A program made the translations under genes and the position numbers. Positions 26,603-46,783 of a stretch of 46,783 bases of DNA are shown in pieces. The notes under the pieces were generated by a model. That model was not told where the DNA came from and did no database searches. It saw only the letters and a program-made list of their open reading frames with translations. The number at the start of each line of letters is the position of its first letter. Positions within the stretch are counted from its first letter, which is position 1. The DNA lies in assembly GCA_043822065.1 (NCBI GenBank), contig JBDRCC010000019.1, forward strand, positions 1 through 46,783, read 5' to 3'. Source of the DNA: an archaeon (GTDB lineage: Archaea > Undinarchaeota > CAZHTU01 > JBDRCC01).

Positions 26603-26721
26603 GGCATCAGTTAAGGGGCTGGTATTTAATAAATTTTCTAAGGGCAAAATAAGACGGGGCGTGAGGTAGGAAACGTTTTTATAGGGTAACCCCTTAAGCA
26701 TGAGACTTGGGGGTTTTTCAA

Positions 26722-27967: not shown

Positions 27968-29413
27968 TTAAGCCTCGGCAGGAGCGGTTTCTGCAACAGC
28001 AGTTCCAGAGGGAGTGGGCGGTGGCGACCGGAATGGCGCTTCCTGTTTGCTGTCCTCGCGCCGGAGGCCTGCAATATCCTCTGCCTCTAATGCCGGCTCT
28101 TTCTCCCCTGATTCTGATATTTTCCTTGTGAGCTTGTTCATCCGTGCAGCCTGGAACTTGCCTTTCCAAAGGTTGTAGGACGCTATCTGCTCGAACCCCT
28201 TGAGCAGCTCCTCCTTAAGCGCTTTGTCTGCCTCAGCCTCGAATTCGACACCCTTGAGCATGCCTGCTGTGTTTTCGGCGTAGTAGACGATTATCGCCAG
28301 CTGGTGGAACACCGAAAGCGCCTCTGCAAGCTTTGCGCGCTTTACAATCTCCTTTGCTGGAATCTTGTAGGCTTCACCCAGCTTGTCGGCGTACTTCCGC
28401 ACCAGGATTGACAGTATCTCAAGGTATATTGTGGTCACGAGGTTGTCCATGCCCCTCTTTACAAGGTTCAGGCTCTCCTTGTTCCCGGTTTTTATGAAAT
28501 CATCGTAAAGGTTGAGTATGTTCCTGCCCTCGACGCCCCAGAATGAGTTTCTGGTCGCCTCGTTCTCCATAAGGTCGCTGCACCGGTTCTGTGAAACCAG
28601 GTCAGCCGCAGATATGTGCATCTGGTGCCTAAGCCTGCGGAGCTCTAAGCTCTGGCCGGAGAGGGCCCCTTTGAACCCTACTGCCTGCTCGAATTTTGAG
28701 AGTGTGAAAAGCGCGTGCGGGCAGACGTAGGCGAGCGCCTGGATTGCGTATTTGCCCTCGGCGCGCAGGCCGCGCTTTATTATAGGCTCCTTGAACTCGA
28801 CGTCTTTGTTTAAAGTCTGCTCCATTTTGTCAAGGTATTCAAGGAACTGCTTTTGGCTCCCGTCCTTGCCGTGGTCTTTTTCGAGGTTCTTTAGCGCCTC
28901 GGAGTAGTGGGACTTTATCTCCTTGTCGAGCTTCATCAGCTTTTTTCTCGTCTCTATCTCGAATTTTAGCGTGCTTCGGGATGACCTCTCGCTGACGTTG
29001 CTGTATATTATCCTCTCAAGAAGGCGGTTTAGGATAAGGAGCTCGAGTGCAAGGTTGCCAAGGTACTCAAGCTCGAAGTCCTTGAGTATGCCAGCCTTGG
29101 ACAGGCTGTCCTTATCCTTCCTGAGCTTGTCATAATCTGAGTTTTCTGCAACGATTGTGCCAACGAGGGAGCAAAGCGGGAATGTGGTCTTCTGCTTTCC
29201 CTGTGCCTGCAGCTCGCGCCTGACGAATGGGCAGCCAAAAACGCGCTGGGTGTTCAGGACATCAAGCGGGTGGCCTATTGTCTCCATCGCAAGCGGGCAG
29301 GCGCACTTAATCTTGTCTACCTGGTTGTAGCCTTTGGTGTGCAGTTTTGTCTTTAAGTCGGTTATTTTCTTCTCTACGTAGCTGTTTACATGCCCAGTTA
29401 TGTCTTCGCCCAT
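27968..29413 (-). CDS. Hypothetical protein (481 aa), predicted helical, N-terminal Cys cluster
   Basis: Long ORF with host-like codon use; CACP...GCPF...PLC; Pro/Ala/Glu tail. No family recognised. Confidence 0.75.
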   Translation of the reverse strand: MGEDITGHVNSYVEKKITDLKTKLHTKGYNQVDKIKCACPLAMETIGHPLDVLNTQRVFGCPFVRRELQAQGKQKTTFPLCSLVGTIVAENSDYDKLRKDKDSLSKAGILKDFELEYLGNLALELLILNRLLERIIYSNVSERSSRSTLKFEIETRKKLMKLDKEIKSHYSEALKNLEKDHGKDGSQKQFLEYLDKMEQTLNKDVEFKEPIIKRGLRAEGKYAIQALAYVCPHALFTLSKFEQAVGFKGALSGQSLELRRLRHQMHISAADLVSQNRCSDLMENEATRNSFWGVEGRNILNLYDDFIKTGNKESLNLVKRGMDNLVTTIYLEILSILVRKYADKLGEAYKIPAKEIVKRAKLAEALSVFHQLAIIVYYAENTAGMLKGVEFEAEADKALKEELLKGFEQIASYNLWKGKFQAARMNKLTRKISESGEKEPALEAEDIAGLRREDSKQEAPFRSPPPTPSGTAVAETAPAEA

Positions 29414-29424
29414 TGTTCTTCAGT

Positions 29425-30927
29425 TCAGGCAGGTGAGGGCATTCCAGCCCTAAAGGCTGAGCCCTTTGAGGGAGTTGAAGGCTCGGACGGAGGTGCTGCC
29501 TCGCCAGCCGGCTCAAACCCGCTGTCAAATTTCACGCCCTGCTGCTCCATTTGCAGAAGGCTCGTGATTACGCCGTCTATCGGCTTCTTTGTAGTCTGCC
29601 CGGTTACAGTCTCGGTTATTGCCTTCGGCAGGTTTGCCACCGTGGCGACTATCCTCGAGACGAAGTTGATTCCGGTGCGGTAGCGCATGGTGTACTGCGC
29701 AAGCTGCGTCCGTATAAGCCTCTGTTTCAGCTCGTACTTCTTAGGAAGCGCAAGTACTGCATTTATGGTGTTTGCGCAGACGTTTATCATGCTGATTAGC
29801 ATTGAGGAGAAATCCTCGTAGGTCGTGAGGATTGCACTGCCAAGAAGTATCCTCTCGTTCTTCGAGAGTGAGGCTATGAGCCTCCGGACATTGCTGCTTC
29901 CGCTGAGAAGCCTTGCTGCGGAGCGGCATCCCTCGATGCTTATCTCCCCCGTGAACCTGACTTCAGAGAGCCTGCCCATGACGAAGTCAGAAACTTTTGT
30001 CGCCTCGTCTACGGTACAGTCAGCAAGGTTTACCCCCGCAAGCTCCTGGGACTCCTTTATCAGCTTAAGTATTGCGGCTATTGTGTGCAGGCCGCTGTCG
30101 TTGTACATGTTTACAACTGCCCTGGACTTCATCATTATGCTTCCGCCGGTGACGTAGTGGACAAACATTACCTGGTCGTCTATGTCCAATTTTGCGCCGC
30201 CGAAGCCAGCCCTTTCGGCAAGCCGCCTGGAAACCCCCGCATATTTCTTTGAGACCTCGCCCAAGACTACATCCTGCGATTTTACAGGCAGGCGGATGAC
30301 GCGCCCGATAACCTGGTTGTCGATTACCTGCAGGTACCTCAGCGTAGGCTTGAACTGGCTGCCCACGTCAAGAAGGCGGTTCATCCTCCTTGCGTCGAGG
30401 TTGATTGACTCGTCGTTGAGCCTGACCCACTCTCGCCACAGGTCGGCGATTAGGTAGGACATTATTACCCTCTCATGCTCTGGCCTAGACTGGAACTTGG
30501 CAGCCTCGCCCTTGTCAAGGAGTAGCTTCGAGATGAAAGCGAACATGCCGATGAAAGGCAGGTCGCCGTTGTCCTCGTATTTGTCTATTACCTTGAACAG
30601 GTATACGGTCTGGTCGTTTTTCGAGGAATAGTCAACATCTGCAGCTGTCTTGACCTTCTTGCCCTTTGGCATCCCCTTGTAGAACTCGGAGAGCATTTTC
30701 TGGTAAGTTTCAAAAAAGACGCGGTAGGCGCCCCAGAACTGGTCCACTACAAGCCTGTTTTGTTTTCCGCTGATTGGGAGGCCGAAATATATGCCCTCGG
30801 TCATCCGCATTAGGGCGCCAGCCTTGCCGCCAAGCGCCTGGGTCCTTCCCCAGAGGGAAAAGACATGGCTGCGCAAAAAATCCTGCGCGACTAATTCATC
30901 AAGCCGGTTTATTGGTCTGAGCCTCAT
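29425..30927 (-). CDS. Hypothetical protein (500 aa), predicted helical
   Basis: Long ORF 11 nt upstream of the 481-aa gene; Pro-rich tail; TTTTATATA about 20-30 nt upstream of the ATG on the minus strand. Confidence 0.75.
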   Translation of the reverse strand: MRLRPINRLDELVAQDFLRSHVFSLWGRTQALGGKAGALMRMTEGIYFGLPISGKQNRLVVDQFWGAYRVFFETYQKMLSEFYKGMPKGKKVKTAADVDYSSKNDQTVYLFKVIDKYEDNGDLPFIGMFAFISKLLLDKGEAAKFQSRPEHERVIMSYLIADLWREWVRLNDESINLDARRMNRLLDVGSQFKPTLRYLQVIDNQVIGRVIRLPVKSQDVVLGEVSKKYAGVSRRLAERAGFGGAKLDIDDQVMFVHYVTGGSIMMKSRAVVNMYNDSGLHTIAAILKLIKESQELAGVNLADCTVDEATKVSDFVMGRLSEVRFTGEISIEGCRSAARLLSGSSNVRRLIASLSKNERILLGSAILTTYEDFSSMLISMINVCANTINAVLALPKKYELKQRLIRTQLAQYTMRYRTGINFVSRIVATVANLPKAITETVTGQTTKKPIDGVITSLLQMEQQGVKFDSGFEPAGEAAPPSEPSTPSKGSAFRAGMPSPA

Positions 30928-31589: not shown

Positions 31590-31638
31590 GATATCACCTT
31601 TTTAATGAAGAAGGGGGATTAATATATAAGTCTTTTTG

Positions 31639-32874
31639 ATGATGAACGGGGATGAAATTAGGGACTATTACAGCAGGGAAGTATGCGCGGCTATTTTTGA
31701 GTGTTCCAGGGATAGGGAGATAGGCTCGGTGCGGGAGGACGGCAAGTACGCATCCAGGCCTGCGGCGGTAAACTACCCGGAGGACATCCAGTCGATAGTC
31801 AGGAAGGGCGCGGTCTCATTCCACGGCTCGATAGAGAGGTGGAAGCAGCCGATGATGCTTTCCACGGGCCTGCCGAAAAGGGAGCTGGACGAGATGCGGC
31901 TTGGCTGGGACTTCGTCATAGACATAGACTGCGATTCCGGGCTGAAATTTGCGTCCCCTGCGGCGGAGGCGTTCATTGACGCGCTCGAGAAGCACGGGAT
32001 AAGGGACTGGTCGGTAAAATTCTCTGGGAACAGGGGGTTCCACATCGGCGTCCCGTTCGAAGTTTTCCCAAAGCACATAGATTTTGAGCCGACTGCGAAG
32101 AAGTATCCCGCCCTGCCGGCTAAGGTGGCAGAGTACCTGAAGGAGTACTGCAGGGAGGACATAAAGAAGAACATAAGGAAGCTTGTCGGGGATGGCCCGT
32201 TTGACCCGTACCAGTATATAGACATTGACATTGGGGTTTTCGCTTCAAGGCACCTGTTCAGGCTGCCGTACTGCCTCCACCAGAAAACCTGGCTTGCGAG
32301 CATCCCGATAAGCAGGGGAGAACTGAAGGATTTCGACAGGGAGAGCGCAAAGCCTGAGAACGTCGAGGTAAAGCTCAGGTTCCTTGAGAGGAGATCATCT
32401 TCCGACGCGTCGCGGCTTATACGGAAGGCGACGTACTGGGCTCCTGAGAAGGAGGCTTCGGAGGAGAGGGAGTTTGAGCCGATAGGCGAAAAGATTGACA
32501 GCGCCAATTTCCCCCCGTGCATCAAAAACATACTCAATGGAATAGAAGACGGGAAGAAGAGGAGCGTGTTCGTCCTGACCTGCTTCCTTCTGAACCTCGG
32601 CTGGAGCGCAGAAGACGTGAAAAAGGTGCTCCTCGAGTGGAACAAAAAGAACCAGGACCCGCTGAACGAGAACGTCCTGCTGTACACCCTCCGCGACCAA
32701 AAGAGGCGCGGCAAGCCGCTGATGTGCCCGAACTGCGACGCGGAAAATTATTATAAGGCATACGGCGTTTGCACTCCTGACAAGCTCTGCGGAAACATAA
32801 AGAACCCGGCAGGGTATGCGCTTGCGAGGCGGAAGGAAAAGAGGCAGGGCAAGAAGAAGGGGAAAAGCAAATGA
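31639..32874 (+). CDS. priS: Fused DNA primase (PriS catalytic + PriL C-terminal Fe-S domain)
   Basis: PriS motifs GWDFVIDID, KFSGNRGFHI, RHLFRLPYCLH; PriL-CTD FPPCI...CPNC...C....CGNIKNP; sits upstream of GINS. Confidence 0.88.
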   Translation: MMNGDEIRDYYSREVCAAIFECSRDREIGSVREDGKYASRPAAVNYPEDIQSIVRKGAVSFHGSIERWKQPMMLSTGLPKRELDEMRLGWDFVIDIDCDSGLKFASPAAEAFIDALEKHGIRDWSVKFSGNRGFHIGVPFEVFPKHIDFEPTAKKYPALPAKVAEYLKEYCREDIKKNIRKLVGDGPFDPYQYIDIDIGVFASRHLFRLPYCLHQKTWLASIPISRGELKDFDRESAKPENVEVKLRFLERRSSSDASRLIRKATYWAPEKEASEEREFEPIGEKIDSANFPPCIKNILNGIEDGKKRSVFVLTCFLLNLGWSAEDVKKVLLEWNKKNQDPLNENVLLYTLRDQKRRGKPLMCPNCDAENYYKAYGVCTPDKLCGNIKNPAGYALARRKEKRQGKKKGKSK

Positions 32875-35542: not shown

Positions 35543-38326
35543 ATGGGAAAGCGCCCCACTTTTGACGCAGACCTCCACCTCCACGGAAAGTACTCACGAG
35601 GGGTGTCGCACAGGATGGAAATCCCAGTAATTGCAGAACAGGCGATTTACAAGGGGCTTGACATTGTCGGCACGGCGGACTGCCTCCACGCAGGCTGGCT
35701 CCAGCACCTTGAGGCGAACCTTAAGGAGGTCGCGCCAGGGACGTACAAACATGGGGGCTTTGAGACAAGGTTCATCCTGCAGACTGAGGTTGAGGGGCTG
35801 CACAGAATACACCACCTTGTTTTCCTCCCAGACTTTGAAGCGGTCAGGCAGCTCAGGAAGGAATTCAGCAGGCATGGGAACTTGGACACTGACGGCAGGC
35901 CGAAGCTGAGGCTTACCGGTGAGGAGATAGCCGGAATGGTGCTTGAAGCCGGCGGGATGGTGGGGCCGGGGCATGCATTCACCCCGTACACCGCAGTCTA
36001 TTCAGCATTCAACTCGTTAAGCGATTGCTATGGAAAGCACATAGGCGACATTCATTTTCTTGAGCTCGGGCTTTCAGCAGACAGCGAGATTGCCTCCGGG
36101 ATAAGGGAGCTGGACAGGATAACTTTCCTTTCAAATAGTGACGGTCATTGTTTACATCCGGATACATCAATATTACTAAGTAATGGAATGCCAGTAGAAA
36201 TAAAAAATCTTGACGACCCCGAAGTATGTTCAATGGCATTTGATACTGATTTAAAACTTAAAAAAGCCACTCCGATTAAAATGATAAGACGTCCGGCTCC
36301 GCCATTTTTGTATAGTATAAAATCAAAATCACGGGCCATAAAAACTACGGAAGACCATAGATTTTTTGTTTTAGATGATGATAGAATAGTAGAAAAATTT
36401 GCTCATGAGTTGAAGAAAGGTGATTTAATAGCATGTCTACGTAATTTTCCTTTCGAAAATAAGCCTTTTATTCTACCGAAATTCGCTCTCAAACGATACT
36501 ACAGGATAAAGCCAGCTGGTTTGGTATATCTTTCTAAAAAACGGAAAAAAATCGCACTTACCCAAAAAGATGTCGCAACTCGCCTTAAAATCCATGAACT
36601 GCAGTACCATTTTATAGAGAAGGGACGAATAAAATGTGAAAAAAATATATTGAAAAAACTGTGTAGATGTTACAAGATTAGATTTAGAGATTTCAAAAAG
36701 AGATTCATAAGCAACGGATATCCTACATTCAAAAACACAAGATATGCCACTCAAAAGTTGTCCCAAATAGTTGGTTATGCCTTGGGAGATGGTAGTCGGG
36801 AGATAGGTAAAAAAGTAAGAGGATTTTCGATAGCAGATAAAGATAAAAAATTGTTGGAACTTTATCAGAAAAAAATTTACGACGTTTTCAATGTAAGGGG
36901 GTGCTTGGAGAAACGCAGCAAACAGAAATCCTACCGTTTGAGACTCCCATCATGCCTTTTAGACTATATAACGCTCATGGCGCCCGAAATTTTTGTATAT
37001 TCGCCGGATCGTAAGATTCCAGAATTTGTTTTTGATTTGCCTAGAAACCAAGTAGGTTCCTTTCTCAAGGGTTTTTTTGATGCTGAAGGGAGCGCAGAGC
37101 ACCATGGTATTTCTGTCTGTTCCTCCAGTCTTATACTATTAAAACAGATGCAAGCGCTATTGCTTAGGTTTGGTATAGTCTCCTATGTGTATCCATATAT
37201 TTTAGAGAAAAAGAAGAAGAGGTATAGACATAGGTTATACATTTATGGTAAGGATTCATTAGATATTTTTAAGAAGAGGATAGGCTTTGATTCTGAGAAA
37301 AAAATGCAGAAGTTACTTGAATATACTTCCTCAGTGAAACAAACATCAAAAGACGCATTTGTGGATTATCTCCCGTTAAAGAATACCATCCGGGAGTTGA
37401 TGGATTTGCTCGATATGCGAATCAGTCACTTCCCGAAGAGGTTGCAGTATCACATATACAAAGGCAGAACTTTGAGGCGCCGACATTTAAGGGATTTAAT
37501 AGAAATATTCCAAAAACACTCAAAAGATGAGAATGCAAATTCACTAATAAACAAATTAAAAAAATTTGTAGAGAGTGATATAATCTGGGAGATGGTAAAG
37601 GAGGTAAAGAAAATTGACTCGGATTGTGAGTATGTATATGATTTGACAATACCCACTTATGAGAATTATATTGCAGAAGGTATAATTGTACATAATTCGC
37701 CCTGGCCGGACAAATTGGGGCGCGAGTTCAACAGGCTGGAGATAAAGGAGCCAATTTACGCCGAAGTAATCAAGGCGCTGAAAAATGAGGGCGGCAGGAG
37801 GGTTGCGCTTAACGTAGGCGTGCCGTGCATTTACGGGAAGTACCACCTGACGCGATGCACGAAGTGTTTGGCGTTCTACTACTTGGAAGACGCAATCCGG
37901 TTCGGCTGGCGTTGCCAGAAGTGCAAGGGCATAATCAAGAAGGGGGTAAAGGACAGGATAGCTGAGATGGCCGGCGGAGGGGACAGGTCAAGGCACCCGC
38001 CGTATCTGTCGATAACCCCGCTTTCGGAAATAATCGCACTTTCGAAGGGCGTGTCAGGGACGCACACTGAAAAAGTCCAGGGCATCTGGCGCAAGTTCAT
38101 TGAGCTTGGAACTGAGATTGAGGTTCTTATTGACCTGCCTGTCGAAAGCCTGCGCAAGGTTGACGCGGACGTCGCAGGAATAATAGGCAGGTTCAGGCAG
38201 AAACAGCTGCATTACATCCCTGGCGGCGGAGGGGAATACGGCAAGCTCGTCCTTGAGAAGCCTAAGAAGCTTGATTTCTACGACTCGAAGCAGAAGACAT
38301 TGGGAAGCTGGGCTAAGACCCCTTGA
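35543..38326 (+). CDS. Endonuclease Q family PHP-domain nuclease, intein-containing precursor (411 aa after splicing)
   Basis: DLHLHGKYS, KGLDIVGTADCLH, QTEVE, RIHHL, HAFTP, LELGLSAD, LSNSDGH|SP, LGREFN, GKYHLTRCTKC...CQKC, KKGVKDRI, PGGGGEYG. Confidence 0.87.
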   Translation: MGKRPTFDADLHLHGKYSRGVSHRMEIPVIAEQAIYKGLDIVGTADCLHAGWLQHLEANLKEVAPGTYKHGGFETRFILQTEVEGLHRIHHLVFLPDFEAVRQLRKEFSRHGNLDTDGRPKLRLTGEEIAGMVLEAGGMVGPGHAFTPYTAVYSAFNSLSDCYGKHIGDIHFLELGLSADSEIASGIRELDRITFLSNSDGHCLHPDTSILLSNGMPVEIKNLDDPEVCSMAFDTDLKLKKATPIKMIRRPAPPFLYSIKSKSRAIKTTEDHRFFVLDDDRIVEKFAHELKKGDLIACLRNFPFENKPFILPKFALKRYYRIKPAGLVYLSKKRKKIALTQKDVATRLKIHELQYHFIEKGRIKCEKNILKKLCRCYKIRFRDFKKRFISNGYPTFKNTRYATQKLSQIVGYALGDGSREIGKKVRGFSIADKDKKLLELYQKKIYDVFNVRGCLEKRSKQKSYRLRLPSCLLDYITLMAPEIFVYSPDRKIPEFVFDLPRNQVGSFLKGFFDAEGSAEHHGISVCSSSLILLKQMQALLLRFGIVSYVYPYILEKKKKRYRHRLYIYGKDSLDIFKKRIGFDSEKKMQKLLEYTSSVKQTSKDAFVDYLPLKNTIRELMDLLDMRISHFPKRLQYHIYKGRTLRRRHLRDLIEIFQKHSKDENANSLINKLKKFVESDIIWEMVKEVKKIDSDCEYVYDLTIPTYENYIAEGIIVHNSPWPDKLGREFNRLEIKEPIYAEVIKALKNEGGRRVALNVGVPCIYGKYHLTRCTKCLAFYYLEDAIRFGWRCQKCKGIIKKGVKDRIAEMAGGGDRSRHPPYLSITPLSEIIALSKGVSGTHTEKVQGIWRKFIELGTEIEVLIDLPVESLRKVDADVAGIIGRFRQKQLHYIPGGGGEYGKLVLEKPKKLDFYDSKQKTLGSWAKTP
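36149..37696 (+). mobile_element. Intein (516 aa) with LAGLIDADG homing endonuclease and XRE-type HTH insert
   Basis: Block A CLHPDTSILLSNG; block B IKTTEDHRFF; LAGLIDADG IVGYALGDG and FLKGFFDAEG; block F YVYDLTI; block G IIVHN followed by Ser+1. DNA is visibly AT-rich relative to the flanks. Confidence 0.95.
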
Positions 38327-39284
38327 TTGTCAGGGATGTGGAGGTTTCGGCGACGTAGACATAGTCTGCGGTTATCACAAAGTCAGGGTATATTTCGCTG
38401 CCTGCAGATAGGTCGGCAACCAGCTCGAAGGTGCAGGAGAGCTGCCTCTTCTGGTTTGAGTAGAGCTCGACGCATCCGAGTTCAAGCGTGCCAGTTCCAG
38501 CTGGACCAAAGGGGCACTCTTTACAGGCATTGCCATTGCAGACTGGTTCGACGACTGCAGAGTCATATTTTATCCTGAGGTAATCTATCCTGTTGAGGCC
38601 GCCATCGGCGCCGAGGTCATTCTTGCTGCAGGAGTTGATTTCGTTTACCATCACAAGGGTCCCGTCTGGATTAACAAGCCCGTCCGATTTAACATACCCT
38701 GGAACAGCTTTAGATAGCTCGAGCGTTATCGGTATCTCGCCCTCATAGACGAAGTTCGGGGTTAGCAGGTCAACCTTGACGGGGCCTATTGACGAGTCAA
38801 CAATTTTCGCAGGAATTGTGTTTTCCTGGACGTGCTCCTGGTAGGAGCCCTCGGTCAGGACTGGGACCTCGGCAGTTACGACGGTGCGGTAGCCGTATAT
38901 TACCCTTGCGCCGACGTCTGAGACGACCCTCTGGTTTTTCCCAGCTATAGTTGGCGCCGTAGCTCTGAGTATCGCCTCACCAGTCTGGCCAGGAAGGTTT
39001 GAGACTACGTCAGGCTTGTTTAGCTTTCCTATTTGGCTTGTGAGCGGAGTAATGACAAGATTAGATGGGCGGAATATTTCGACTCTTGTGTTCAGCGCGT
39101 CCGCCTCGCCGACGTTCTGGACCTGGACTCTGAGGTCAACTGCCTTACCTGAAAGGATTTCGCTTATTGCCGGCTCGAAAGACAGTATCTTGACGCCCTC
39201 CGGCGAGTAGGAAGTGACACCGCGGCCGCCTGCGACGCATCCAAGAATCAGAAGGACAAAGACGAAGGGAAAATATTTTTTCAT
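38313..39284 (-). CDS. Surface-protein array paralog 1 (lipobox-like signal, two beta-rich domains)
   Basis: MKKYFPFVFVLLILGC; GVKILSFEP, VQNVG, YGY, GPVKV, LSCTF, DYVY. Confidence 0.85.
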   Translation of the reverse strand: MKKYFPFVFVLLILGCVAGGRGVTSYSPEGVKILSFEPAISEILSGKAVDLRVQVQNVGEADALNTRVEIFRPSNLVITPLTSQIGKLNKPDVVSNLPGQTGEAILRATAPTIAGKNQRVVSDVGARVIYGYRTVVTAEVPVLTEGSYQEHVQENTIPAKIVDSSIGPVKVDLLTPNFVYEGEIPITLELSKAVPGYVKSDGLVNPDGTLVMVNEINSCSKNDLGADGGLNRIDYLRIKYDSAVVEPVCNGNACKECPFGPAGTGTLELGCVELYSNQKRQLSCTFELVADLSAGSEIYPDFVITADYVYVAETSTSLTIKGS

Positions 39285-40243
39285 CTAGACACCACCAAGA
39301 CGCTGGTTGAGCCGCGGACATGATAGGTGTATGCGGCGTCCACCTTGACCAGAGGAAATACTTCATCAGTCGCTAGCGGCTTCATCTTGAGGGTGCACTT
39401 CAGCTGGGCGTAGGTGCCGTCAATAAGGTTAACGTTTGCTTTTGACCTGCGCGTAGCATCCGTGCCCGTAAAGTCGCACAATGTCGGGTCGCTCGCTATC
39501 TCAGCTGCGGTCGGGAATGTTAGCTCGGAGGGTATAACAAGGGTTACGCTGTCGACGCAATGCGTCCGGCTTTTGCCGCATTCGGACCCGATAGAGGGAT
39601 CGGCGCCCATTTGCACAAAACCCTGGTCGACCTTTTCTAGAAGAACGGTCAGTGTTACGGTATTAGTGTCTGCAGAGTATACCACCGGCTCGTAAACCTT
39701 TATGTCCATCATGAGCGGAGCAGGCTGGACTCCTGATTTGGAGGACGGGAGCTGCTGGCTTGACGCGCGGAGCTCGTTTACCCGTGACTGCTTGAGAATT
39801 GGAAACTCCTTCCAGGCTGAGGACGTGTAGTCGTAGCTGATGTCTGTAGAGAACGTGAACGGGTACTGCATCTCACCCTCGACAATGTCCGGCGCCTGGA
39901 GCTTCCAGACGAACTCGTGGGTTTCGCCCTGGGATTTTAGCTCGATGTTCGGCCCCCTGATGCTTACTTTATCACTAATATAGGTCGTGCCGGTCCCGGG
40001 GTAGGGCTTGAAGTTTCCGTGGAGGAAAAGGTCTGCCTGGACGTTTTCTGCCCGGAAGGCGCCGCTGTTCTGGACTATCAGGGAAAGGTCGACCCGGTCG
40101 TTTTCAGTGACCTGAGGGAGGGACGGGGTAAAGCTGACGATTTCGATTGCCGTCGCCTTCTGGATGACTGACCCGCCTCCAGTAAGGCATCCTAAGACAA
40201 GGACTACGAGCAGTGGCAGTGCGTATTTCATGCTGTTGTTCAT
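39281..40243 (-). CDS. Surface-protein array paralog 2
   Basis: MKYALPLLVVLVLGC; IEIVSFTP, VQNSG, WKLQAP, YDY, CDFTG, LKCTL, YTY. Confidence 0.85.
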   Translation of the reverse strand: MNNSMKYALPLLVVLVLGCLTGGGSVIQKATAIEIVSFTPSLPQVTENDRVDLSLIVQNSGAFRAENVQADLFLHGNFKPYPGTGTTYISDKVSIRGPNIELKSQGETHEFVWKLQAPDIVEGEMQYPFTFSTDISYDYTSSAWKEFPILKQSRVNELRASSQQLPSSKSGVQPAPLMMDIKVYEPVVYSADTNTVTLTVLLEKVDQGFVQMGADPSIGSECGKSRTHCVDSVTLVIPSELTFPTAAEIASDPTLCDFTGTDATRRSKANVNLIDGTYAQLKCTLKMKPLATDEVFPLVKVDAAYTYHVRGSTSVLVVSR

Positions 40244-41157
40244 GGCTCTACGTTAATATTAATGTTTTTGTTAATTGCGTAGCGGTAGTTCGCCTTCGCG
40301 ACGATGACTGGGAAGCCTTCGGTGTAGTTGCAGGATTTTATTGTTGGATCATATGTCATGTTTATGTCTAGTATACAGCTTACCCTTGCGTTCTGGCCTT
40401 TCCAAAGGGAAATAGAGCTGACGGTTACGGGAGCCCAAATAGTGCCTTTTTTCAAACCGCTGCAGTTGAATGTATTATTGTGCCAATCGCTTTGGAGCTC
40501 AACCTCGACGAAATCCACTACGTTGAGGCCTGCTGCGCCCTTTACCGAGCCGCCGCCGACATTGTTAAGGATTATCTCGAAAGCAGTTTGTGAACTGCAG
40601 TCCTGGTCGACCTGTATCGGATCCTCAATCTGGAGGTCGAGGGATATCGGGCCCATGGTTTTCTGGGTCGTCCCCTTCTTCGCCTCATAGGTGCTCTCCC
40701 TGAGCTCGTTGAGGCGGTCGATTGTGAAGACCGGGACTTCGCGCATTATCAGTGTGGAGTAGTCGTATGCCAGCTCGACATCAACGCTCTGCGCCTCCGG
40801 AAATTCGACGTCTGGAGCTTTCACTGAGAAGTAAGTCTGGGAGGTTCCGCCAGGCACCCTTGCGCGCTCGTCCGGGGCGAACAGGTCGGTCTCGCCCCCA
40901 GAGACTTTTGTGACGGTAAGGCGGCCTGCCCTCTTGCTTGCGACGCCTATATTCGCGGCATCCGAGCCGCCGACATTCTGGTATTGCAGGAAAAGCCCGA
41001 TTTCCTCGCCGGCGCGCATCGGGTTCTTGTCAAGCTCGAAAGAGACTACCCTAAGCCCCTCAGGAGATAAAGTGAATGTGTCTGCGCCGCCTCCCTGCTG
41101 GTTCAGGCAGCCTAAGGCAAGGACAATAAGGACCAATGCAAATGCGTGTCTGCGCAT
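40240..41157 (-). CDS. Surface-protein array paralog 3
   Basis: MRRHAFALVLIVLALGC; GLRVVSF, YQNVG, YDY, GPISL, LNNVGGGSV, VSCIL, YRY. Confidence 0.85.
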   Translation of the reverse strand: MRRHAFALVLIVLALGCLNQQGGGADTFTLSPEGLRVVSFELDKNPMRAGEEIGLFLQYQNVGGSDAANIGVASKRAGRLTVTKVSGGETDLFAPDERARVPGGTSQTYFSVKAPDVEFPEAQSVDVELAYDYSTLIMREVPVFTIDRLNELRESTYEAKKGTTQKTMGPISLDLQIEDPIQVDQDCSSQTAFEIILNNVGGGSVKGAAGLNVVDFVEVELQSDWHNNTFNCSGLKKGTIWAPVTVSSISLWKGQNARVSCILDINMTYDPTIKSCNYTEGFPVIVAKANYRYAINKNININVEP

Positions 41158-41199
41158 GCTATCCCCTAAGGCGTTGATAATATAAAGATTTTCTTATGG

Positions 41200-42219
41200 C
41201 TAAGACGGCGCCAAACCGCCAGTGCCGACGACTTTTATGTTTGTCTTGCCCTCTATCTGGTAGTTGTAGGATGCAATGGCGTAGGCGCTGTACAGCCGCT
41301 CGAAGGAGGGGTCAACGTCGTCAGGCAGTGTCACGTTGAGGTTGCAGGTGACGTAGCCTGTCTCCGCGCCGACCATCTGAAGCTTGGGTATGTCTACGAC
41401 ATATTCGCTTCCAGATGATGTTGCCAGAACATCATTGCACTCCATGAGCGCGTAGTACTGTGGGTTTGGCTTTGTCATCCGGATAGTGACCTTGTCAATG
41501 CAGCCGAGCTCGTCGTGGCAGCCGGTGCCCTTGTCAATGGCTTTTACCACGCCGGTGCCGACGTCCTTGATGTTGATTGTTATCGGGACTATCCGCTCAG
41601 AGTAGGAGCCGGTCTCATCCTTCGAGACAACTATCTGCGACTGCGGGACGACTATCTCAACTGAGACAGGGCCTGCGCTGGAGGACGCGGAAGTGCCCTG
41701 CGGCTCGGTGCTCTGCTTCCGGTGCTCATAAAGCCGCTGCCTGGTCAGCATGACAAAATCAGCCCTGCCCTCGCTGATGTAGTTGTAGGTGACAATGCCG
41801 CGGATTTCATGCTCGCGCGTGCTGATGTCTGACGGCGCCAAAACCTCCCAGAAAACAAGCGCGGCGTCGCCAGGGAAGTTGTTCGTAACGTCCGGCGGGT
41901 CCATGTCGGATGGGGCGCCGCGCGGCCCTGCCTGGAGGGAGAAGCCGCCGGGGAGTGAAAGGCGCGGGCCTATCTGGCTCGCCTTTGCGTTCCCGACATT
42001 GAGCAGGTCCATTGATATTGTGAATACCTCGCTGGAGTAAATCTCCTCGAAGTCAGGCTGGAAGTAGTTAATCTTGATGCCATGCCCGTATTCAACAACT
42101 GCGTCGGAAGGCCGGACTGGAAGGTTGCCCCTGCTGGTTTCTGTGAGGCACCCTAGTACAAGGAATAGTGCAAGAATGCAAAGTGATGCTGTTTTCGTCA
42201 TAGGCAAGCTAAAGCGCAT
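41200..42219 (-). CDS. Surface-protein array paralog 4
   Basis: LALFLVLGC; GIKINYFQP, LLNVG, WEVLAP, YNY, GPVSV, KDVGTGVV, VTCNL, YNY. Confidence 0.85.
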   Translation of the reverse strand: MRFSLPMTKTASLCILALFLVLGCLTETSRGNLPVRPSDAVVEYGHGIKINYFQPDFEEIYSSEVFTISMDLLNVGNAKASQIGPRLSLPGGFSLQAGPRGAPSDMDPPDVTNNFPGDAALVFWEVLAPSDISTREHEIRGIVTYNYISEGRADFVMLTRQRLYEHRKQSTEPQGTSASSSAGPVSVEIVVPQSQIVVSKDETGSYSERIVPITINIKDVGTGVVKAIDKGTGCHDELGCIDKVTIRMTKPNPQYYALMECNDVLATSSGSEYVVDIPKLQMVGAETGYVTCNLNVTLPDDVDPSFERLYSAYAIASYNYQIEGKTNIKVVGTGGLAPS

Positions 42220-42242
42220 GGTATTTATGTTTTTTGCCCCAG

Positions 42243-42265
42243 GAGGGGATTAAGAAAATCCCCTC
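42243..42265. terminator. Inverted repeat with T-rich tract downstream of paralog 5
   Basis: GAGGGGATT-AAGAA-AATCCCCTC is a 9-bp stem. On the minus strand it follows CCCCCTTTTATTTTTT right after the stop codon. Confidence 0.5.
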
Positions 42266-42296
42266 AGGAGAGGGCCCCGCAAAAAATAAAAGGGGG

Positions 42297-43226
42297 CTAA
42301 ATTGTCTGTGTGCCGATTATTACAATCGTGGCGTACTCGTCTATCTGGTACCTGTACCTTGCGACCGCGGTGAACTCGTAGGTGTTCTCCGTGTCCTTGT
42401 TCAGCGCCCTGAGCCTGCAGGTCAGTGACCTGTGCTTGCCGCTTAGAAGCTGCAGCCTCTGCGGGTCAAGCTGGAGGGTCAGAAGGCCTCCGCCAGCGCC
42501 GAGCGTTCCTGAAAAGTCGCAGTACTCGCCAATCTCGAACCCTGCTGGAACTATTAGGTCCACGGCGTCCATTATGTCGTATCCGCCGTCAACGTACGAA
42601 TACTGCTGCGAGCGGACTGCGCCGTTGCCTATGTTCTCTATGTCGACCGAAATCGTAAAGGTGTCAAACCTGTCCGAAACGATGACCGGGTTCTTTGTCG
42701 ACTGGATGGTTACCAGCAGCGGACCCTCTGACGAGGACATCTCGAGCGGGTAGTTTGTCAGCCCGAGGTCCTTCTTCGCATCCCATTCGGCTTTGGGGAC
42801 TACGGGGACGTCGACTCTTCCAAAGGAGGTATAGTCGTACTGGATTCTTCCAGTAAGGGTTACAACGTCCCTAAGCCCTAGTTCCCGTTTGGGAATTGTG
42901 AAGATGAAGGAGTAGTCCTGGACTTCCCCTTCGCTCACGTCACTGGGCGGGTCAAGGCTTCCGAGTTCGGCAGTCGTTGTCCCGATGAAGTCCTCGAAGT
43001 TGAGGACCTCTGCGTGTATGTTCGAGGCAAGCGAATCGCCGACGTTCTGGAGCTCCAGGAAAACCTCGAACGTCTCCGTTCCTGTTCCCTGGAATTCCGA
43101 GGACTCGGGCTCAAACTGGGTTATCACTAACCCAGTCCTTGTCCCTGTATACTGCGGCCCGGAGGGTGCGGTTTCGATGCACCCGAGCACTAATACCAGC
43201 GCAAGCAGCGGTAGGTATTTCTTCAA
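42297..43226 (-). CDS. Surface-protein array paralog 5
   Basis: Probable TTG start (GAGGTG RBS 6 nt upstream), MKKYLPLLALVLVLGC; GLVITQFEP, LQNVG, YDY, GPLLV, IENIGNGAV, CDFSG, LTCRL, YRY. Confidence 0.85.
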   Translation of the reverse strand: MKKYLPLLALVLVLGCIETAPSGPQYTGTRTGLVITQFEPESSEFQGTGTETFEVFLELQNVGDSLASNIHAEVLNFEDFIGTTTAELGSLDPPSDVSEGEVQDYSFIFTIPKRELGLRDVVTLTGRIQYDYTSFGRVDVPVVPKAEWDAKKDLGLTNYPLEMSSSEGPLLVTIQSTKNPVIVSDRFDTFTISVDIENIGNGAVRSQQYSYVDGGYDIMDAVDLIVPAGFEIGEYCDFSGTLGAGGGLLTLQLDPQRLQLLSGKHRSLTCRLRALNKDTENTYEFTAVARYRYQIDEYATIVIIGTQTI

Positions 43227-43240
43227 GTTGTACACCTCGC

Positions 43241-44680
43241 TCACTGGGCGTCGACTTCTATGCCGTCGACGGTCCTGGAAGCTGACTGCCCTTTGTACGA
43301 CACCTGCATGGTAAGCTTGTCCGGCTTGGCATATATCATGTCCGTTGAAGCCGGTACCTTGCCGAATGCGTCGACCGGGAAGTCGAGGTAGACCCTGAAC
43401 GGCCCAACATCGTCGGCGTTCATTCCGCCGGTAGTGCCAGCCGCCTCTTCAACCTTGTTTACCACAAGCTTGTAGGTCTTGCTGTCGTCGTTCCTTATGG
43501 TCGCTGACCACGGGGAGTTGGCGCAGTTTCCTGCAGTGCACTCGAAGAAGCTCGCGTTGGAGGAGCCGCTGTAAGCAGCGTCAACCGTCAATACGAGGTA
43601 GTTTCCGCTCGGGTCGCGGTTTGCGTCGCCTATTACCCACGGGTTTGCTGTCGAGCTCATCGGCAGGAGAGTGGATGTTGCTGCATCCCAGACCAGCACG
43701 GAGTAGTCGAACCCGTCCTGGATGTAGCCGAGTAGGTTGTCGACATGGTCACCCTGCGTGTCAAGGCTTACGTATGTCGCCTCGGAGAGGATGTCAAGGT
43801 TCGTTGTCTGCTCAAGCTCGTACCTGTAGTTGAGTATGGCGGTTATTGGGTACCTGCTCTCCCTGAGCGGCGCGTTTGACAGCTCAAGCCTGCAGGAGAA
43901 GTATTTCTCTCCGCCAATAAGCCTGAAGTTGTGTGCGCTCAGGATTGCACCGTTGGTCCTCGGGCCTGTGAAGTCACAGTCCGAAGTCCTGTGCAGGTCG
44001 TCCGGCAGGTCGATTGTTACTGAGTCGACGACGTCAATCTGGCCAGCGGCGTTCTTCACTATGCCCGTGCCGTCGTTGGAGACCAAAACCCTCAGGGTTA
44101 CGGTTCCGGAAGCTCCCGGGTCCGTCCTAAGCGGGTTCAGCGGCAGGACTGTGACCGCAATCGGCCCGTTCGAGCACTCCATGTTGGAGTCAAGCCCGAC
44201 GTCGCCGGTCTTCTGCCTCTGCCTCCATTCGTCGGATGGCATGTAGATTACATCTGCCTGGCCTGTCGAGACGAAGTCATAAGAAAGCCTGCCCCTTACG
44301 GTTGCAGTCTTTTTCTGGAGCGTCCCAATGTCTGAAGGCGCGTAAAGTACCCAGTCGGCTATGTCCGGTGCCGGGGCACCCTCGACGTATGCGTCTAGGT
44401 CAGATATGGTCTGCACTAACTCTTCGGTTCCCCTGTCAAGGCCGCCGAGGCTCGTCAGCTCTGCTGCGATTGACGATGCCGGCGAAGAGCCGAAATTTTC
44501 AACCTCCATTGTGAAGGTTATGCCCTCACCAATGTAGGCGCTTGGTATGCCAGCCGAGAAGGCATTTATCAGGACACCGTCCATGACTTCCGGCTCGCAT
44601 CTCTGTATTGTCCCGCCTCCGCTTGTGCCGCCTACGCAGCCCAAGACGAGAAGGGGCAATAGCAATAGTAGACGTTTCAT
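43241..44680 (-). CDS. Surface-protein array paralog 6 with extra C-terminal domain
   Basis: MKRLLLLLPLLVLGC; GVLINAF, VENFG, WVLYAP, YDF, GPIAV, SNDGTGIV, CDFTG, FSCRL, YRY, then about 180 additional aa. Confidence 0.85.
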   Translation of the reverse strand: MKRLLLLLPLLVLGCVGGTSGGGTIQRCEPEVMDGVLINAFSAGIPSAYIGEGITFTMEVENFGSSPASSIAAELTSLGGLDRGTEELVQTISDLDAYVEGAPAPDIADWVLYAPSDIGTLQKKTATVRGRLSYDFVSTGQADVIYMPSDEWRQRQKTGDVGLDSNMECSNGPIAVTVLPLNPLRTDPGASGTVTLRVLVSNDGTGIVKNAAGQIDVVDSVTIDLPDDLHRTSDCDFTGPRTNGAILSAHNFRLIGGEKYFSCRLELSNAPLRESRYPITAILNYRYELEQTTNLDILSEATYVSLDTQGDHVDNLLGYIQDGFDYSVLVWDAATSTLLPMSSTANPWVIGDANRDPSGNYLVLTVDAAYSGSSNASFFECTAGNCANSPWSATIRNDDSKTYKLVVNKVEEAAGTTGGMNADDVGPFRVYLDFPVDAFGKVPASTDMIYAKPDKLTMQVSYKGQSASRTVDGIEVDAQ

Positions 44681-44687
44681 ATGCTAT

Positions 44688-44735
44688 ACCTCCTTTGGTA
44701 TTGGTATCATTATTCTTGCTTTTGGTCTATTTAAA
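44688..44735 (-). promoter_or_regulatory. Internal promoter and strong RBS for paralog 6
   Basis: Minus strand TTTAAATA (44728-44735) and AGGAGGT (44688-44694), 7 nt before the ATG. Confidence 0.5.
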
Positions 44736-44764
44736 CGTTGTTGTTACTGTTTGGGGACAATTTT

Positions 44765-46075
44765 TCAGCCAACTGCCTCTCCCCTGACAGTTACGAGGGT
44801 GTCCCTCGTGGCTGAATAGTAATAGTCCGCACCGGCGCGTATGCCGACGAGCTGCTGGAGGCTGACGGCATCCTTGTCGACGTTGAACCAGAGGACGTAG
44901 GTGTTGTACGTGCCTCCGCCGAGGAGGTCAAGGCTGTACCTCATATAGTTAAGGGCTTCGGCGTCACCAACAGGGGGCAGAGCCAGCAAAACCCATCCCT
45001 GTAGAGGTGGGGCTGGCCCTGGATCCGGAGTAGTGCCGGGGCTGGGGCTGACTTGAGTGGTAGATAACCCAACATACTTCCCTGCAGAGCAGGATAATAG
45101 ACTGGAACTAGGTAACATCGCTGGCTTGCAGAGCGTCTTTGTGAATATGTAGTACTCCGAATTTGAGGTGTCGTCGAACAGCCAGAGGTAGTCCCAGTTG
45201 ACCGAGCTTAGGGCATAGTCCGTTCCAGAAGCCGCGGAATTGTTGCAGTCCTTCTTGGCGCAGTACAGCATGCCAGCATCGGTGTCGGTCACGTTTGTGC
45301 CTGCCGGGATTACATACGCCTTCGGCACCTTCACCTGGATGGACTCAATCTTGTCAAGGTTCTGCTCGGCTACAGGGCCAGAGCCTTTGGCGGACATGAC
45401 CTTGCCCCCGCCGGAGTTTGTCAGGTCGATTCTTATTGGGAAAGAAGTGTCTGTGGCTGCCTGGAGGTCTGAGTAGTACATCACTGGCGCCGCCTTTATG
45501 TCGACGACCAGCGGGGCCTTGGTGTGCCCGCCGGAAGCCTGCGCCTGCCCGCCCTGCTCAGCCTGAACCTTCACTTCCTCTTTCTGGGTTATCAGGATGT
45601 CAGCCCAGCCCTCTGCCTTGTACCTGTAGTCGACACGGACGCCGAGGTTGTAACCCTGGGTGCCCATGAGGCCTTCAGGAGCCATAAGGTGCCACACCCA
45701 TTCGCGCTTGTCAGATGGGACTCCAGTTTCCAGGTCAAGCGGGTCAAGGTCGCTTGGAGCCCAAGAGGTGATGGTAGTTCCGCCAGCGCCCATTAGCTTG
45801 CCCATCCGGTAGAGGCTCGCAGTAACCTCCTTTGCAGGGTATTCCCCGTTGTTCGCAATCTCAAGGTTTACGCCGACGGTGTCCCCGGCGGCAATCTCCT
45901 TTTGGTCAGGGTAGAACTCTATTATCGCAAGCCCGGGCGCGGCAATGAGCGCCCCGCCCTTGCCAAGCTTGCTAGGCGAGAAGTTGAGCTTCCCTGACAT
46001 AACGAAGTAGAGCACGCCGGCTAGTATTAGTAATACTATTAGTGCGGCTGCTATGGGCGTCTTTTTATCCGACAT
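44765..46075 (-). CDS. Surface-protein array paralog 7 (TM anchor, no lipobox Cys)
   Basis: MSDKKTPIAAALIVLLILAGVLYFVMSG; GLAIIEFYP, IANNG, WHLMAP, YRY, APLVV, LTNSGGGKV, YYY; long Cys/Pro-rich insert. Confidence 0.85.
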   Translation of the reverse strand: MSDKKTPIAAALIVLLILAGVLYFVMSGKLNFSPSKLGKGGALIAAPGLAIIEFYPDQKEIAAGDTVGVNLEIANNGEYPAKEVTASLYRMGKLMGAGGTTITSWAPSDLDPLDLETGVPSDKREWVWHLMAPEGLMGTQGYNLGVRVDYRYKAEGWADILITQKEEVKVQAEQGGQAQASGGHTKAPLVVDIKAAPVMYYSDLQAATDTSFPIRIDLTNSGGGKVMSAKGSGPVAEQNLDKIESIQVKVPKAYVIPAGTNVTDTDAGMLYCAKKDCNNSAASGTDYALSSVNWDYLWLFDDTSNSEYYIFTKTLCKPAMLPSSSLLSCSAGKYVGLSTTQVSPSPGTTPDPGPAPPLQGWVLLALPPVGDAEALNYMRYSLDLLGGGTYNTYVLWFNVDKDAVSLQQLVGIRAGADYYYSATRDTLVTVRGEAVG

Positions 46076-46783
46076 TTGTTATCATCACCGGCTTTGTCTG
46101 GTAGACGACGTTCATCGTGTATTTTGCGTTGACAGTTACCTTGAAGCTGTCCTGTGTAAATGTTTGCGGATTTAGAGGGGAGTCTGTAGTCGTGTAATCT
46201 GGGTTAGGCGCAATCCATATGACGTACTGCTCCGGGCGGCTTGACATGGTGCTGATTTTTGCAGGGCGGAGCTTCATAATCTGGTAGTCTGGGTAGCTGG
46301 TGAACAATAAGCATTTCCCAGTATCCGGGTCGACGCCGTCGTCCCAGCACCCATGGCAGTTATCCGTCTGCTTGGTTCCTCCGCAGTATGCCCTCCCGCC
46401 TGCGATGTGCTCCTTTGGGACAAAGACAAAGCCGTCGTCAAGCTCTATCGTCAGTTCCTCGACGCAGTTCGGGATTATCCCCTGCGCCAGGCTGTTCGTC
46501 GCGTAGCCGCAGATGTCACGGATTTTTGATGCATCATCAGTATCAGCTAATGCCGTAAGAAGCGAACCTAGGGGTGGTTGCGTAACCGTGCCGTCGAAGT
46601 CTGCATCAATTTGGTCGGTGTTTACAACAGCAAACACCTCGCCGCTGAGGGCATATTCGAGGGTTATCTTGATTGGGATGATGTTCTGCTGGTCTTCCCA
46701 GCCGCCGTAGGTGCCTGACCCTGGCTTATAGTTGAGAATGACCGGGCGCGCCGGGACGTCGACCTTGACGCGGACCGGCGCTG
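46065..46783 (-). CDS. Surface-protein array paralog 8, C-terminal part (starts beyond window)
   Basis: Frame is open to the window edge: APVRVKVDVPARPVILNY...IPIKITLEYALSGEVFAVV...CVEELTIEL...YVIWI...NAKYTM, which matches the second-domain motif order. Confidence 0.75.
   Translation of the reverse strand, partial: APVRVKVDVPARPVILNYKPGSGTYGGWEDQQNIIPIKITLEYALSGEVFAVVNTDQIDADFDGTVTQPPLGSLLTALADTDDASKIRDICGYATNSLAQGIIPNCVEELTIELDDGFVFVPKEHIAGGRAYCGGTKQTDNCHGCWDDGVDPDTGKCLLFTSYPDYQIMKLRPAKISTMSSRPEQYVIWIAPNPDYTTTDSPLNPQTFTQDSFKVTVNAKYTMNVVYQTKPVMITNVG

Follow-up and report, generated by a model that had tools for sequence, protein, structure and literature searches.

An uncharacterised tandem family of two-domain, predicted surface lipoproteins in an archaeon

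Introduction

Several described families of exported protein bear comparison with the products of eight adjacent genes at positions 38313-46783 of the archaeal contig JBDRCC010000019.1 (GenBank assembly GCA_043822065.1). The window, meaning the whole stretch of DNA analysed here, is 46,783 nucleotides long, and the genes are called g1 to g8, with g8 the first visible gene in the direction of transcription and g1 the last. Among bacterial proteins, the MSCRAMM adhesins (ClfA, SdrG, SdrE, FnBPA, and Cna) possess DEv-IgG domains, a latch strand, and a C-terminal LPXTG sortase anchor. They too are anchored at the surface, measure about 300 aa, and contain two immunoglobulin-like (Ig-like) domains, but the array proteins would be anchored at the opposite end, through an N-terminal lipid; the array chains terminate directly beyond their last strand and lack a C-terminal anchor signal, and no latch motif was identified in them. 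Type V pilins (FimA/Mfa1) offer a likeness of layout only, in that a precursor of the lipoprotein type contains two beta-sandwich domains and has a C-terminal strand that is conserved. In type V pili, a conserved protease site follows the lipidated cysteine, and a cut there takes away the first strand and leaves a groove open. The array, in contrast, has neither an outer membrane nor a gingipain-type protease as its context, and has no sequence match or listed fold match to these pilins. Multigene families of surface lipoproteins also occur in small-genome, host-dependent bacteria, including the Vlp/Vsa families of Mycoplasma and those of Borrelia. Tandem paralogous lipoprotein genes, in a cell probably attached to another, are the shared feature here, whereas the paralogs of the array are ancient and partly translationally coupled, and a reading of its open reading frames (ORFs) and spacers, which included no search aimed at phase-variation signals, found no repeats or switch elements.

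In archaea, the lipobox lipoproteins, whose processing depends on AliA/AliB in Haloferax volcanii, resemble the array members in their hydrophobic (h-) region, in G-C at positions -1/+1, and in a flexible linker. The array members differ in a leucine at position -2, and the published work does not describe the array family. According to the available part of a preprint (10.1101/2024.08.27.609747; published as PMC12462473), lipobox proteins are widespread in archaea of the DPANN group and mostly Sec-dependent outside the haloarchaea, and the consensus archaeal lipobox is [L/V/I][A/S/T/V/I][G/A/S]C. Putative surface and S-layer proteins of cultivated Nanobdellota, such as MJ1_0160 and MJ1_0707 of Nanobdella aerobiophila, are likewise exported DPANN proteins with Ig-like folds; in the accessible text of their report (10.1101/2023.10.27.564410), by whose description alone they are compared here, proteins of this type have 900-1300 aa, are heavily N-glycosylated, and are transmembrane-anchored or unanchored, unlike those of the array. 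The available sections of another study (PMC8204110) describe Aenigmarchaeota-specific protein families that have no functional prediction, many of them predicted to be membrane-bound or extracellular. No description of a family such as that of the array was found in the literature; the supplementary tables of the same study, which lay outside the search, may list it as an anonymous cluster.

Here, we describe the array as a real and uncharacterised tandem family of two-domain, predicted surface lipoproteins. An earlier, sequence-only reading of this DNA had proposed that the proteins form a cell-surface assembly, which is to be taken as a hypothesis and not as a finding.

The Array and Its Paralogs

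As that reading had claimed, eight co-oriented genes fill 38313-46783. All are on the minus strand, with transcription running from the window edge toward 38313, and in that order they are as follows:

46065-46781, minus strand: g8, first visible gene; truncated at its 5' end by the window edge, leaving 238 aa
44765-46075, minus strand: g7, 436 aa; N-terminal hydrophobic anchor without a lipobox cysteine; domain 2 of 251 aa
43241-44680, minus strand: g6, 479 aa; lipobox; two-domain core to about residue 305, then a C-terminal extension
42297-43244, minus strand: g5, 315 aa; lipobox; GTG start, 4-nt overlap with the g6 stop
41200-42219, minus strand: g4, 339 aa; lipobox
40240-41157, minus strand: g3, 305 aa; lipobox; heads the overlapping trio g3-g2-g1
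39281-40243, minus strand: g2, 320 aa; lipobox; 4-nt overlap of its start with the g3 stop
38313-39284, minus strand: g1, 323 aa; lipobox; last in the array

Seven of these genes, g1 to g7, are paralogs far beyond chance. Full-length phmmer comparisons match 19 of their 21 pairs, with E-values from 1.1e-06 to 1.5e-25 (Z=8), and 15 of the 21 pairs still match in at least one direction when the signal peptides are removed (3.8e-07 to 6.5e-24). Pairwise identity is 19-28% over aligned columns. The closest paralog of g5 is g6 (E=1.5e-25, full length), and the best pairwise E-value of g7 is 4.1e-19, with g2; the 304 bits scored by g7 against the hidden Markov model (HMM) of the family are circular, g7 being in that model. 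A seven-row alignment (A2) has 13 invariant columns, and its consensus runs GxxIxxFxP, QNVGxxxAxNI, DLDxPD, WxxxAP, YDY, GPxxVDI, LxNxGxGxVK, DxV, C, LxxG..CxL, and AxYxY, which reproduces the ordered series of motifs noted in the earlier reading.

In a maximum-likelihood tree, six of the seven paralogs sit on terminal branches longer than 2 changes per site, the exception being the core of g6 at 1.26, and the groups (g4, g6, g5), (g1, g3), and (g2, g7) receive moderate support of 80-89. Branches of this length point to ancient duplicates and not to a recent expansion, and the great age of the paralogs, together with their joint retention, argues for non-redundant roles. The G+C content of the array (0.535-0.567) is like that of the remaining window (0.515-0.573, except for an intein block at 36001-38000 with 0.392), so the array looks native. 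No additional family members were found outside it when the g1-g7 HMM was run against the 359 stop-to-stop ORFs of the window.

The truncated eighth gene is more difficult to place, and the earlier count of eight divergent paralogs holds firmly for g1 to g7 only. Specifically, g8 has no phmmer match to g1-g7 and reaches E=0.76 against their HMM. Its first 51 residues align with the start of domain 2 (hhalign E=0.001, probability 21%, 40 columns), and comparison with a domain-2 HMM gives 7.4 bits, spread over three collinear segments, a score attained by 0 of 1000 shuffles (maximum 6.6 bits; 855 shuffles scored). In alignment A7, it has P, G, V, C, and Y columns in common with all seven paralogs and is without the second cysteine of the conserved pair. 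The part of g8 inside the window, 238 aa with six cysteines, is equivalent to a domain 2 that has acquired insertions; a structure predicted with AlphaFold2 (AF2) from the domain-2 alignment is poor, with a predicted local distance difference test (pLDDT) score of 51.8. It is probable, though not proven, that g8 is a divergent family member whose domain 1 lies beyond 46783.

As had also been remarked, the genes often overlap: starts and stops do so at four of the seven junctions, by 4 nt at g3/g2, g2/g1, and g6/g5 and by 11 nt at g8/g7. At the other end of the array, the 3' end of g1 overlaps by 14 nt the 3' end of a convergent, intein-bearing gene. An alternative start in g4, Met7 (42201), would give a protein of 333 aa, and this is the likelier start because the ESM Atlas record of g4 begins at residue 7 and the ATG is preceded, at a distance of about 30 nt, by a TATA-like, AT-rich box.

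Export and Membrane Anchoring

Export of the array proteins is suggested by their N-termini and by the composition of the mature chains. In g1 to g6, a motif reading finds an N-terminus that is short and charged, followed by a hydrophobic core and the sequence x-L-G-C, with the cysteine at residues 15-24; positions -1 and +1 fit a lipobox, position -3 is V, I, or A, and position -2 is leucine in all six. Lipoprotein-like precursors, as had been proposed, are suggested by six of the seven visible N-termini and not by that of g7, which has a similar hydrophobic segment from which the cysteine is missing. An identical LVLGC signal occurs on an unrelated PQQ beta-propeller protein encoded at 25340-26701, and thus looks like the general lipoprotein signal of the organism. 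Each of the eight proteins contains an even number of cysteines (2, 4, or 6), the mature chains are acidic throughout, and N-glycosylation sequons number 0-4 per protein. Taken together, the lipobox signals, even cysteine counts, and acidic chains support secretion as a deduction from the amino acid sequences; the proteins would be exported by means of their signal peptides, and those of g1 to g6 would be lipidated at the lipobox cysteine. The linker that follows this cysteine is 12-22 residues long, has a mean identity of 17%, and contains no conserved basic cleavage site and no conserved Arg/Lys.

A class III pilin signal consists of a short charged N-terminus, G/A at -1, and a hydrophobic helix that is kept in the mature protein. 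The N-termini of the array do not have this form: those of g1 to g6 are of the lipobox type, and in g7 the hydrophobic segment is preceded by the residues K-K-T-P, without G/A at -1.

Fold and Domain Architecture

Mature g4, modelled by AF2 with its paralogs as the alignment, gave a pLDDT of 83.7 and a predicted template modelling score (pTM) of 0.80. In this model, residues 1-19 are disordered and correspond to the linker after the cysteine; an all-beta domain 1 (24-135) is followed by a helix (136-144) and a loop, and then by an all-beta domain 2 (154-307). Each domain closes in a hairpin with the YxY motif on the hairpin's first strand. The model supports the two-beta-domain architecture that had been read from the motifs, and the sub-threshold CARDB matches described below are in keeping with its proposed CARDB-like character. 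The further suggestion that the two domains are homologous to each other receives one weak positive sign (hhalign E=4.3e-4, probability 34%, in register at NxG and YxY), and an internal duplication is plausible but not proven.

The two domains differ in how they vary. Domain 1 has a near-constant length of 111-119 aa in all seven paralogs, and the helix and linker between the domains measure 22-23 aa in all seven despite 11% identity, so that both lengths are strictly conserved at identities of 11-26%. Domain 2, in contrast, varies from 135 to 251 aa and has 173 gapped columns of 284, as against 30 of 129 in domain 1; the largest, in g7 (251 aa), includes a Pro-rich insertion. A cysteine pair in domain 2, earlier assigned to six members, is present in all seven in alignment A2, but a single invariant cysteine column remains in alignment A6, and the number of members with the pair thus depends on the alignment. 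The conserved pair would form a disulfide. The C-terminal extension of g6, about 175 aa long (43241-43765), has no similarity to the core (hhalign E=0.62). The ESM Atlas provides leads for it, with a feature score of 0.84 and template modelling (TM) scores of 0.42-0.54 to assorted beta-sandwich clusters, and it is possibly a third beta-sandwich.

The g4 model also bears on whether subunits might be joined by exchange of strands. The conserved first strand (GxxIxxFxP) is packed inside domain 1 with a pLDDT of at least 90, and the C-terminal strand is paired with the YxY strand in a tight hairpin (pLDDT blocks of 90, 95, and 86), with no sign of a free donor strand or open groove. As far as a monomer model can show, which is not far enough to exclude strand exchange, the protein is thus a self-complete monomer, an outcome that the sequence-only reading had itself named as counting against its proposal. 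The analogy that it drew with type V pili is weakened accordingly, given the visible subunits' own anchors, a linker with no conserved cleavage site, and terminal strands packed in the monomer model. A predicted complex of g3, g1, and g2 (partner g2, paralog alignments) gave an ipSAE of 0.00 in both runs, which were made without controls, and speaks neither for nor against binding.

Comparison with Known Families and Folds

Sub-threshold Pfam matches to CARDB or DUF11 were obtained for six of the eight proteins, at the NxG motif of either domain. The best CARDB score (PF07705) was 18.1 bits (E=0.0032), below the cut-off of 22.7; no CARDB match was found in g3, g4, and g8, and two of the eight proteins matched neither CARDB nor DUF11. 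NCBIfam gave nothing meaningful, TIGR01451 scoring 15.9 against a cut-off of 24 in g6 only, so that no protein of the array belongs to CARDB or DUF11 at the curated cut-offs of Pfam (PF07705, PF01345) or NCBIfam (TIGR01451). The best sequence match in the PDB, from a profile search, was the CARDB-like 2kut (E=0.049, 32 residues). Both domains of the array proteins share with CARDB and DUF11 the strand-turn 'xLxVxNxGxxxA', which aligns to CARDB positions 11-55 and to 2kut, and the array model likewise suggests an all-beta sandwich. However, the array proteins align to only about 45 of the 101 profile positions, always below the cut-offs, and the fixed two-domain unit with its helix linker, the cysteine pair, and the YxY hairpins are particular to the array family. 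ESM Atlas structure matches at rows 4-9 were to CARDB, DUF11, and NPCBM_assoc clusters (TM 0.33-0.34), and no named cluster exceeded 0.36.

Foldseek comparison with the PDB returned 93 matches at E <=0.001, of which the best 50 are Ig-like multidomain proteins of surface or adhesion type with query-normalised TM scores of 0.14-0.25. Among the matches listed are integrin alpha legs, ClfA/SdrG/Cna, RbmA, VesC, and the linker-CBM (carbohydrate-binding module) units of sialidases; no pilin, S-layer, or cannula protein is among the best 50. The MSCRAMM matches have E-values of 1.8e-5 to 1.9e-4 and probabilities of 0.69-0.97, but query-normalised TM scores of only 0.17-0.20 and identities of 5-9%. 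A virus or defence origin was considered and rejected: tblastn against phages gave no match, PHROGs and PADLOC each matched none of the eight proteins, and a fold search of BFVD found generic Ig-like matches only, with query-normalised TM scores of at most 0.27. No named family was identified in Pfam, NCBIfam, PHROGs, PADLOC, or the PDB sequences, in agreement with the earlier view that the family is uncharacterised and, by Pfam and NCBIfam, that it has no pilin signal, ATPase, or enzyme family.

Relatives and Taxonomic Setting

All 30 feature matches to g4 in the ESM Atlas are in unnamed archaeal clusters, the top three with a score of 0.96 and 59-210 members. By structure, g4 comes nearest, at TM scores of 0.64-0.69, to Atlas clusters that occur most often in Aenigmatarchaeota and Nanobdellota, and one of these clusters has been automatically named 'Lipoprotein family protein'; the taxon labels of such clusters rest on few members, and the matched record may come from the same genome. 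These look-alike clusters suggest that the family is common to the Aenigmatarchaeota and Nanobdellota. Scans of genome contigs produced 124 pattern matches with g4 alone and 34 with an alignment of g6, g5, and g4, none of which was confirmed by tblastn, a result that is not evidence of absence.

The array-bearing archaeon is probably a DPANN member near the Aenigmatarchaeota. The DPANN setting assumed in the sequence-only reading is plausible in view of the Atlas clusters and of a fused PriS-PriL primase in the window, a fusion that we take to be typical of Nanoarchaeota/DPANN. The primase is a single protein of 412 aa (31636-32874, plus strand) with PriS at residues 95-225 and PriL at 264-389. 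For their lipids, DPANN archaea are generally believed to rely on a host. The window nevertheless encodes a tetraether lipid synthase, Tes (7375-9099, minus strand; 673 bits against a cut-off of 450), which, with ATP-citrate lyase (3662-6783), PFOR (9177-12101), and an archaeal FBPase (26707-27843), suggests a less reduced metabolism.

Spacers and Genomic Neighbourhood

Three spacers within the array contain possible signals of transcription or translation, the TATA-like calls being based on the archaeal promoter consensus:

44681-44764, minus strand: g7-g6 spacer; TATA-like, AT-rich box, and AAGGAGGT, a strong Shine-Dalgarno-like sequence, 7-14 nt ahead of the g6 ATG
42220-42296, minus strand: g5-g4 spacer; oligo-T tract and hairpin-like repeats directly after the g5 stop, and an AT-rich box before g4
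41158-41199, minus strand: g4-g3 spacer; a TTTATATTA box, some 27 nt ahead of the g3 ATG

The elements of the first spacer suggest that g6-g5 form a separate transcription unit, and the box in the third is a possible promoter for g3-g2-g1. Terminator-like sites were reported at 42274-42259 by a sigma-70/terminator scan, which is unsuited to archaea and was used for hairpin coordinates only; its total of seven showed no excess over the shuffle mean of 8.8. On these features, the array may comprise two to four transcription units.

The window otherwise consists of archaeal housekeeping DNA, including genes for ATP-citrate lyase, PFOR, class II ribonucleotide reductase, RtcB, IscS/IscU, an archaeal FBPase, aIF2-alpha, and GINS. 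Within the visible neighbourhood, genes upstream of g8 lying beyond the window, no gene for an ATPase, a secretin, a protease, or a glycosyltransferase lies next to the array. The gene that converges on g1 (35543-38326, plus strand) encodes a 927-aa TIGR00375 PHP-domain protein with a LAGLIDADG intein at about residues 203-719, and the G+C content of the intein block at 36001-38000 contrasts with about 0.53 elsewhere. Further away, a cluster of envelope redox and secreted proteins (23091-26701) contains thioredoxin/DsbA-like membrane proteins at 23091-25339. One of its products, of 536 aa, matches the NCBIfam Rcas_1661 thioredoxin-like lipoprotein family (235 bits) and contains two thioredoxin/DsbA-like units; others are a DsbA-like protein of 213 aa and the PQQ/BamB-like beta-propeller protein with the LVLGC lipobox. 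Two adjacent genes (27968-29413 and 29425-30927, both minus strand) encode proteins of 481 and 500 aa that have a helix-rich look, Pro/Ala/Ser-rich C-terminal tails, no signal peptide, and no Pfam or NCBIfam match. Finally, a 597-aa protein (746-2539, minus strand) possesses a single KaiC/ArlH-like ATPase domain (residues 355-591) preceded by about 350 aa without a family match, and no tRNA genes, nor any Rfam families at gathering score, were found in the whole 46.8-kb window.

Proposed Role and Alternatives

We interpret the array proteins as a multigene family that is specific to its lineage, tethered to the membrane at the cell surface, and used in envelope or adhesion functions, a reading whose chances of being right or wrong we consider evenly balanced. 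Each precursor would be exported by a Sec-type signal peptide; in g1 to g6, the signal would be removed and the lipobox cysteine lipidated, as described for archaeal lipoproteins, while g7 would be anchored by an uncleaved hydrophobic segment or be cut elsewhere. The flexible linker of 12-22 residues would then keep a rigid stalk of two domains on the outer side of the membrane, with the constant, CARDB-like domain 1 closest to the membrane and the fixed-length connector next. Domain 2, distal and disulfide-bearing, would point away from the cell and bear nearly all of the length variation, including the additional C-terminal domain of g6. This distal domain may be the working end, which would bind a host or neighbour surface, a glycan, or the cell's own envelope layer, and the paralogs would be old, non-redundant variants co-expressed from two to four short transcription units. 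Orientation, binding function, and co-expression are all deduced here. The thioredoxin/DsbA-like proteins at 23091-25339 are an extracytoplasmic sign in keeping with this scheme.

Several observations weigh against it. The leucine at -2 in all six lipoboxes is outside the consensus ([A/S/T/V/I]) quoted in the available part of the preprint (10.1101/2024.08.27.609747). So few sequons are unusual for exposed archaeal surface proteins, and the fold matches are generic (query-normalised TM at most 0.25 in the PDB and 0.27 in BFVD), with adhesins not singled out. The proposed function is argued from architecture. The taxon leans on Atlas labels from few members, possibly of the same genome. Moreover, a G+C content of about 54% and a rich metabolic set (ATP-citrate lyase, PFOR, and Tes) are unlike those of published Aenigmarchaeota metagenome-assembled genomes, whose G+C contents are 25.5-47.9% in the accessible portion of one report (PMC8407114). 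Finally, the coupling at four of the seven junctions, the co-retained old paralogs, and the constant inter-domain geometry fit a stoichiometric complex no worse than proteins that act independently.

Such a complex is the best-surviving alternative, and we regard it as a real if somewhat unlikely possibility. The paralogs would then be subunits of one membrane-anchored hetero-oligomeric structure (a sheet, ring, cone, or platform) in which each has a fixed position, for example as part of a DPANN attachment apparatus or of a membrane-proximal envelope layer. Very old paralogs kept side by side, overlaps of the kind typical of translational coupling, and domain 1 and helix-linker lengths held constant through extensive divergence all speak for a structure like this, as do the many separate look-alike clusters in the Atlas, which appear as if each paralog had its own orthologs. 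It is also tempting to connect such a structure with the attachment organelle of cultivated Nanobdellota, whose proteins are stated to be unknown in the available text of PMC11420986. On the other side, transcription of the array is apparently divided among as many as four units, g5 and g4 being separated by a terminator-like T-tract, and its visible neighbourhood has no ATPase, secretin-like, or scaffold gene. In a more specific form, in which the array encodes parts of a DPANN-specific anchored hetero-oligomer such as the cone or portal that cryo-ET shows in the Nanobdellota host-attachment organelle (to the extent that the accessible part of PMC11420986 describes it) or a membrane-proximal lattice of Aenigmatarchaeota, the proposal becomes quite unlikely.

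Surface glycan-binding lipoproteins of the SusE/SusF type, found in Bacteroidota, follow a comparable logic. If the array proteins were likewise to capture glycans, lipids, or other nutrients, with their beta-sandwich domains as binding modules, a lipid-anchored chain of such domains would be a suitable design and a host-dependent archaeon would need aids to uptake; the Foldseek matches also include sialidase units of an Ig-like linker and a carbohydrate-binding module (2bzd, 1eut; E=4e-5 to 1.5e-4) and accessory domains of glycoside hydrolases. This role is unlikely, given that no transporter, glycosidase, or uptake gene adjoins the array, that no carbohydrate-binding family was matched in Pfam or NCBIfam, and that the TM scores are low.

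That the proteins form the S-layer or main coat of the cell is very unlikely. They are exported Ig-like proteins of an archaeon, and candidate DPANN S-layer proteins also have Ig-like folds, but the latter, as presented in the available text of a bioRxiv preprint (10.1101/2023.10.27.564410), have about 1000 aa, 4-5 Ig-like folds, and 13-17 N-glycosylation sites, as against about 300 aa and 0-4 sequons in the array. Likewise, seven or eight equally diverged paralogs do not follow the one- or two-protein pattern of S-layers given in the accessible part of PMC5744192; size, paralog number, and scarce sequons thus make an S-layer role a poor fit.

Least probable of all, and hardly credible on present evidence, is a filament built by donor-strand exchange after proteolytic loss of the lipidated N-terminus, in the style of the Bacteroidota type V pilus, which has in its favour the lipoprotein-type precursors, the two beta domains, and a C-terminal YxY and strand conserved in all members, but is disfavoured by the anchors that the visible subunits carry themselves, the poorly conserved linker without a basic or other cleavage motif, the packing of both terminal strands, the lack of any pilin in Pfam, NCBIfam, or the best 50 of 93 PDB fold matches, and the absence of a dedicated protease or usher-like gene from the visible vicinity.

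Significance

Much of archaeal diversity consists of DPANN archaea, most of which live in attachment to other cells and whose surface molecules are almost unknown. The array supplies a compact family that models well, with proteins of about 300 aa, two domains, and a predicted lipid anchor. If its members act singly, the result would be the annotation of a new family of surface lipoproteins; if they assemble, parts of a new archaeal surface structure would have been named.

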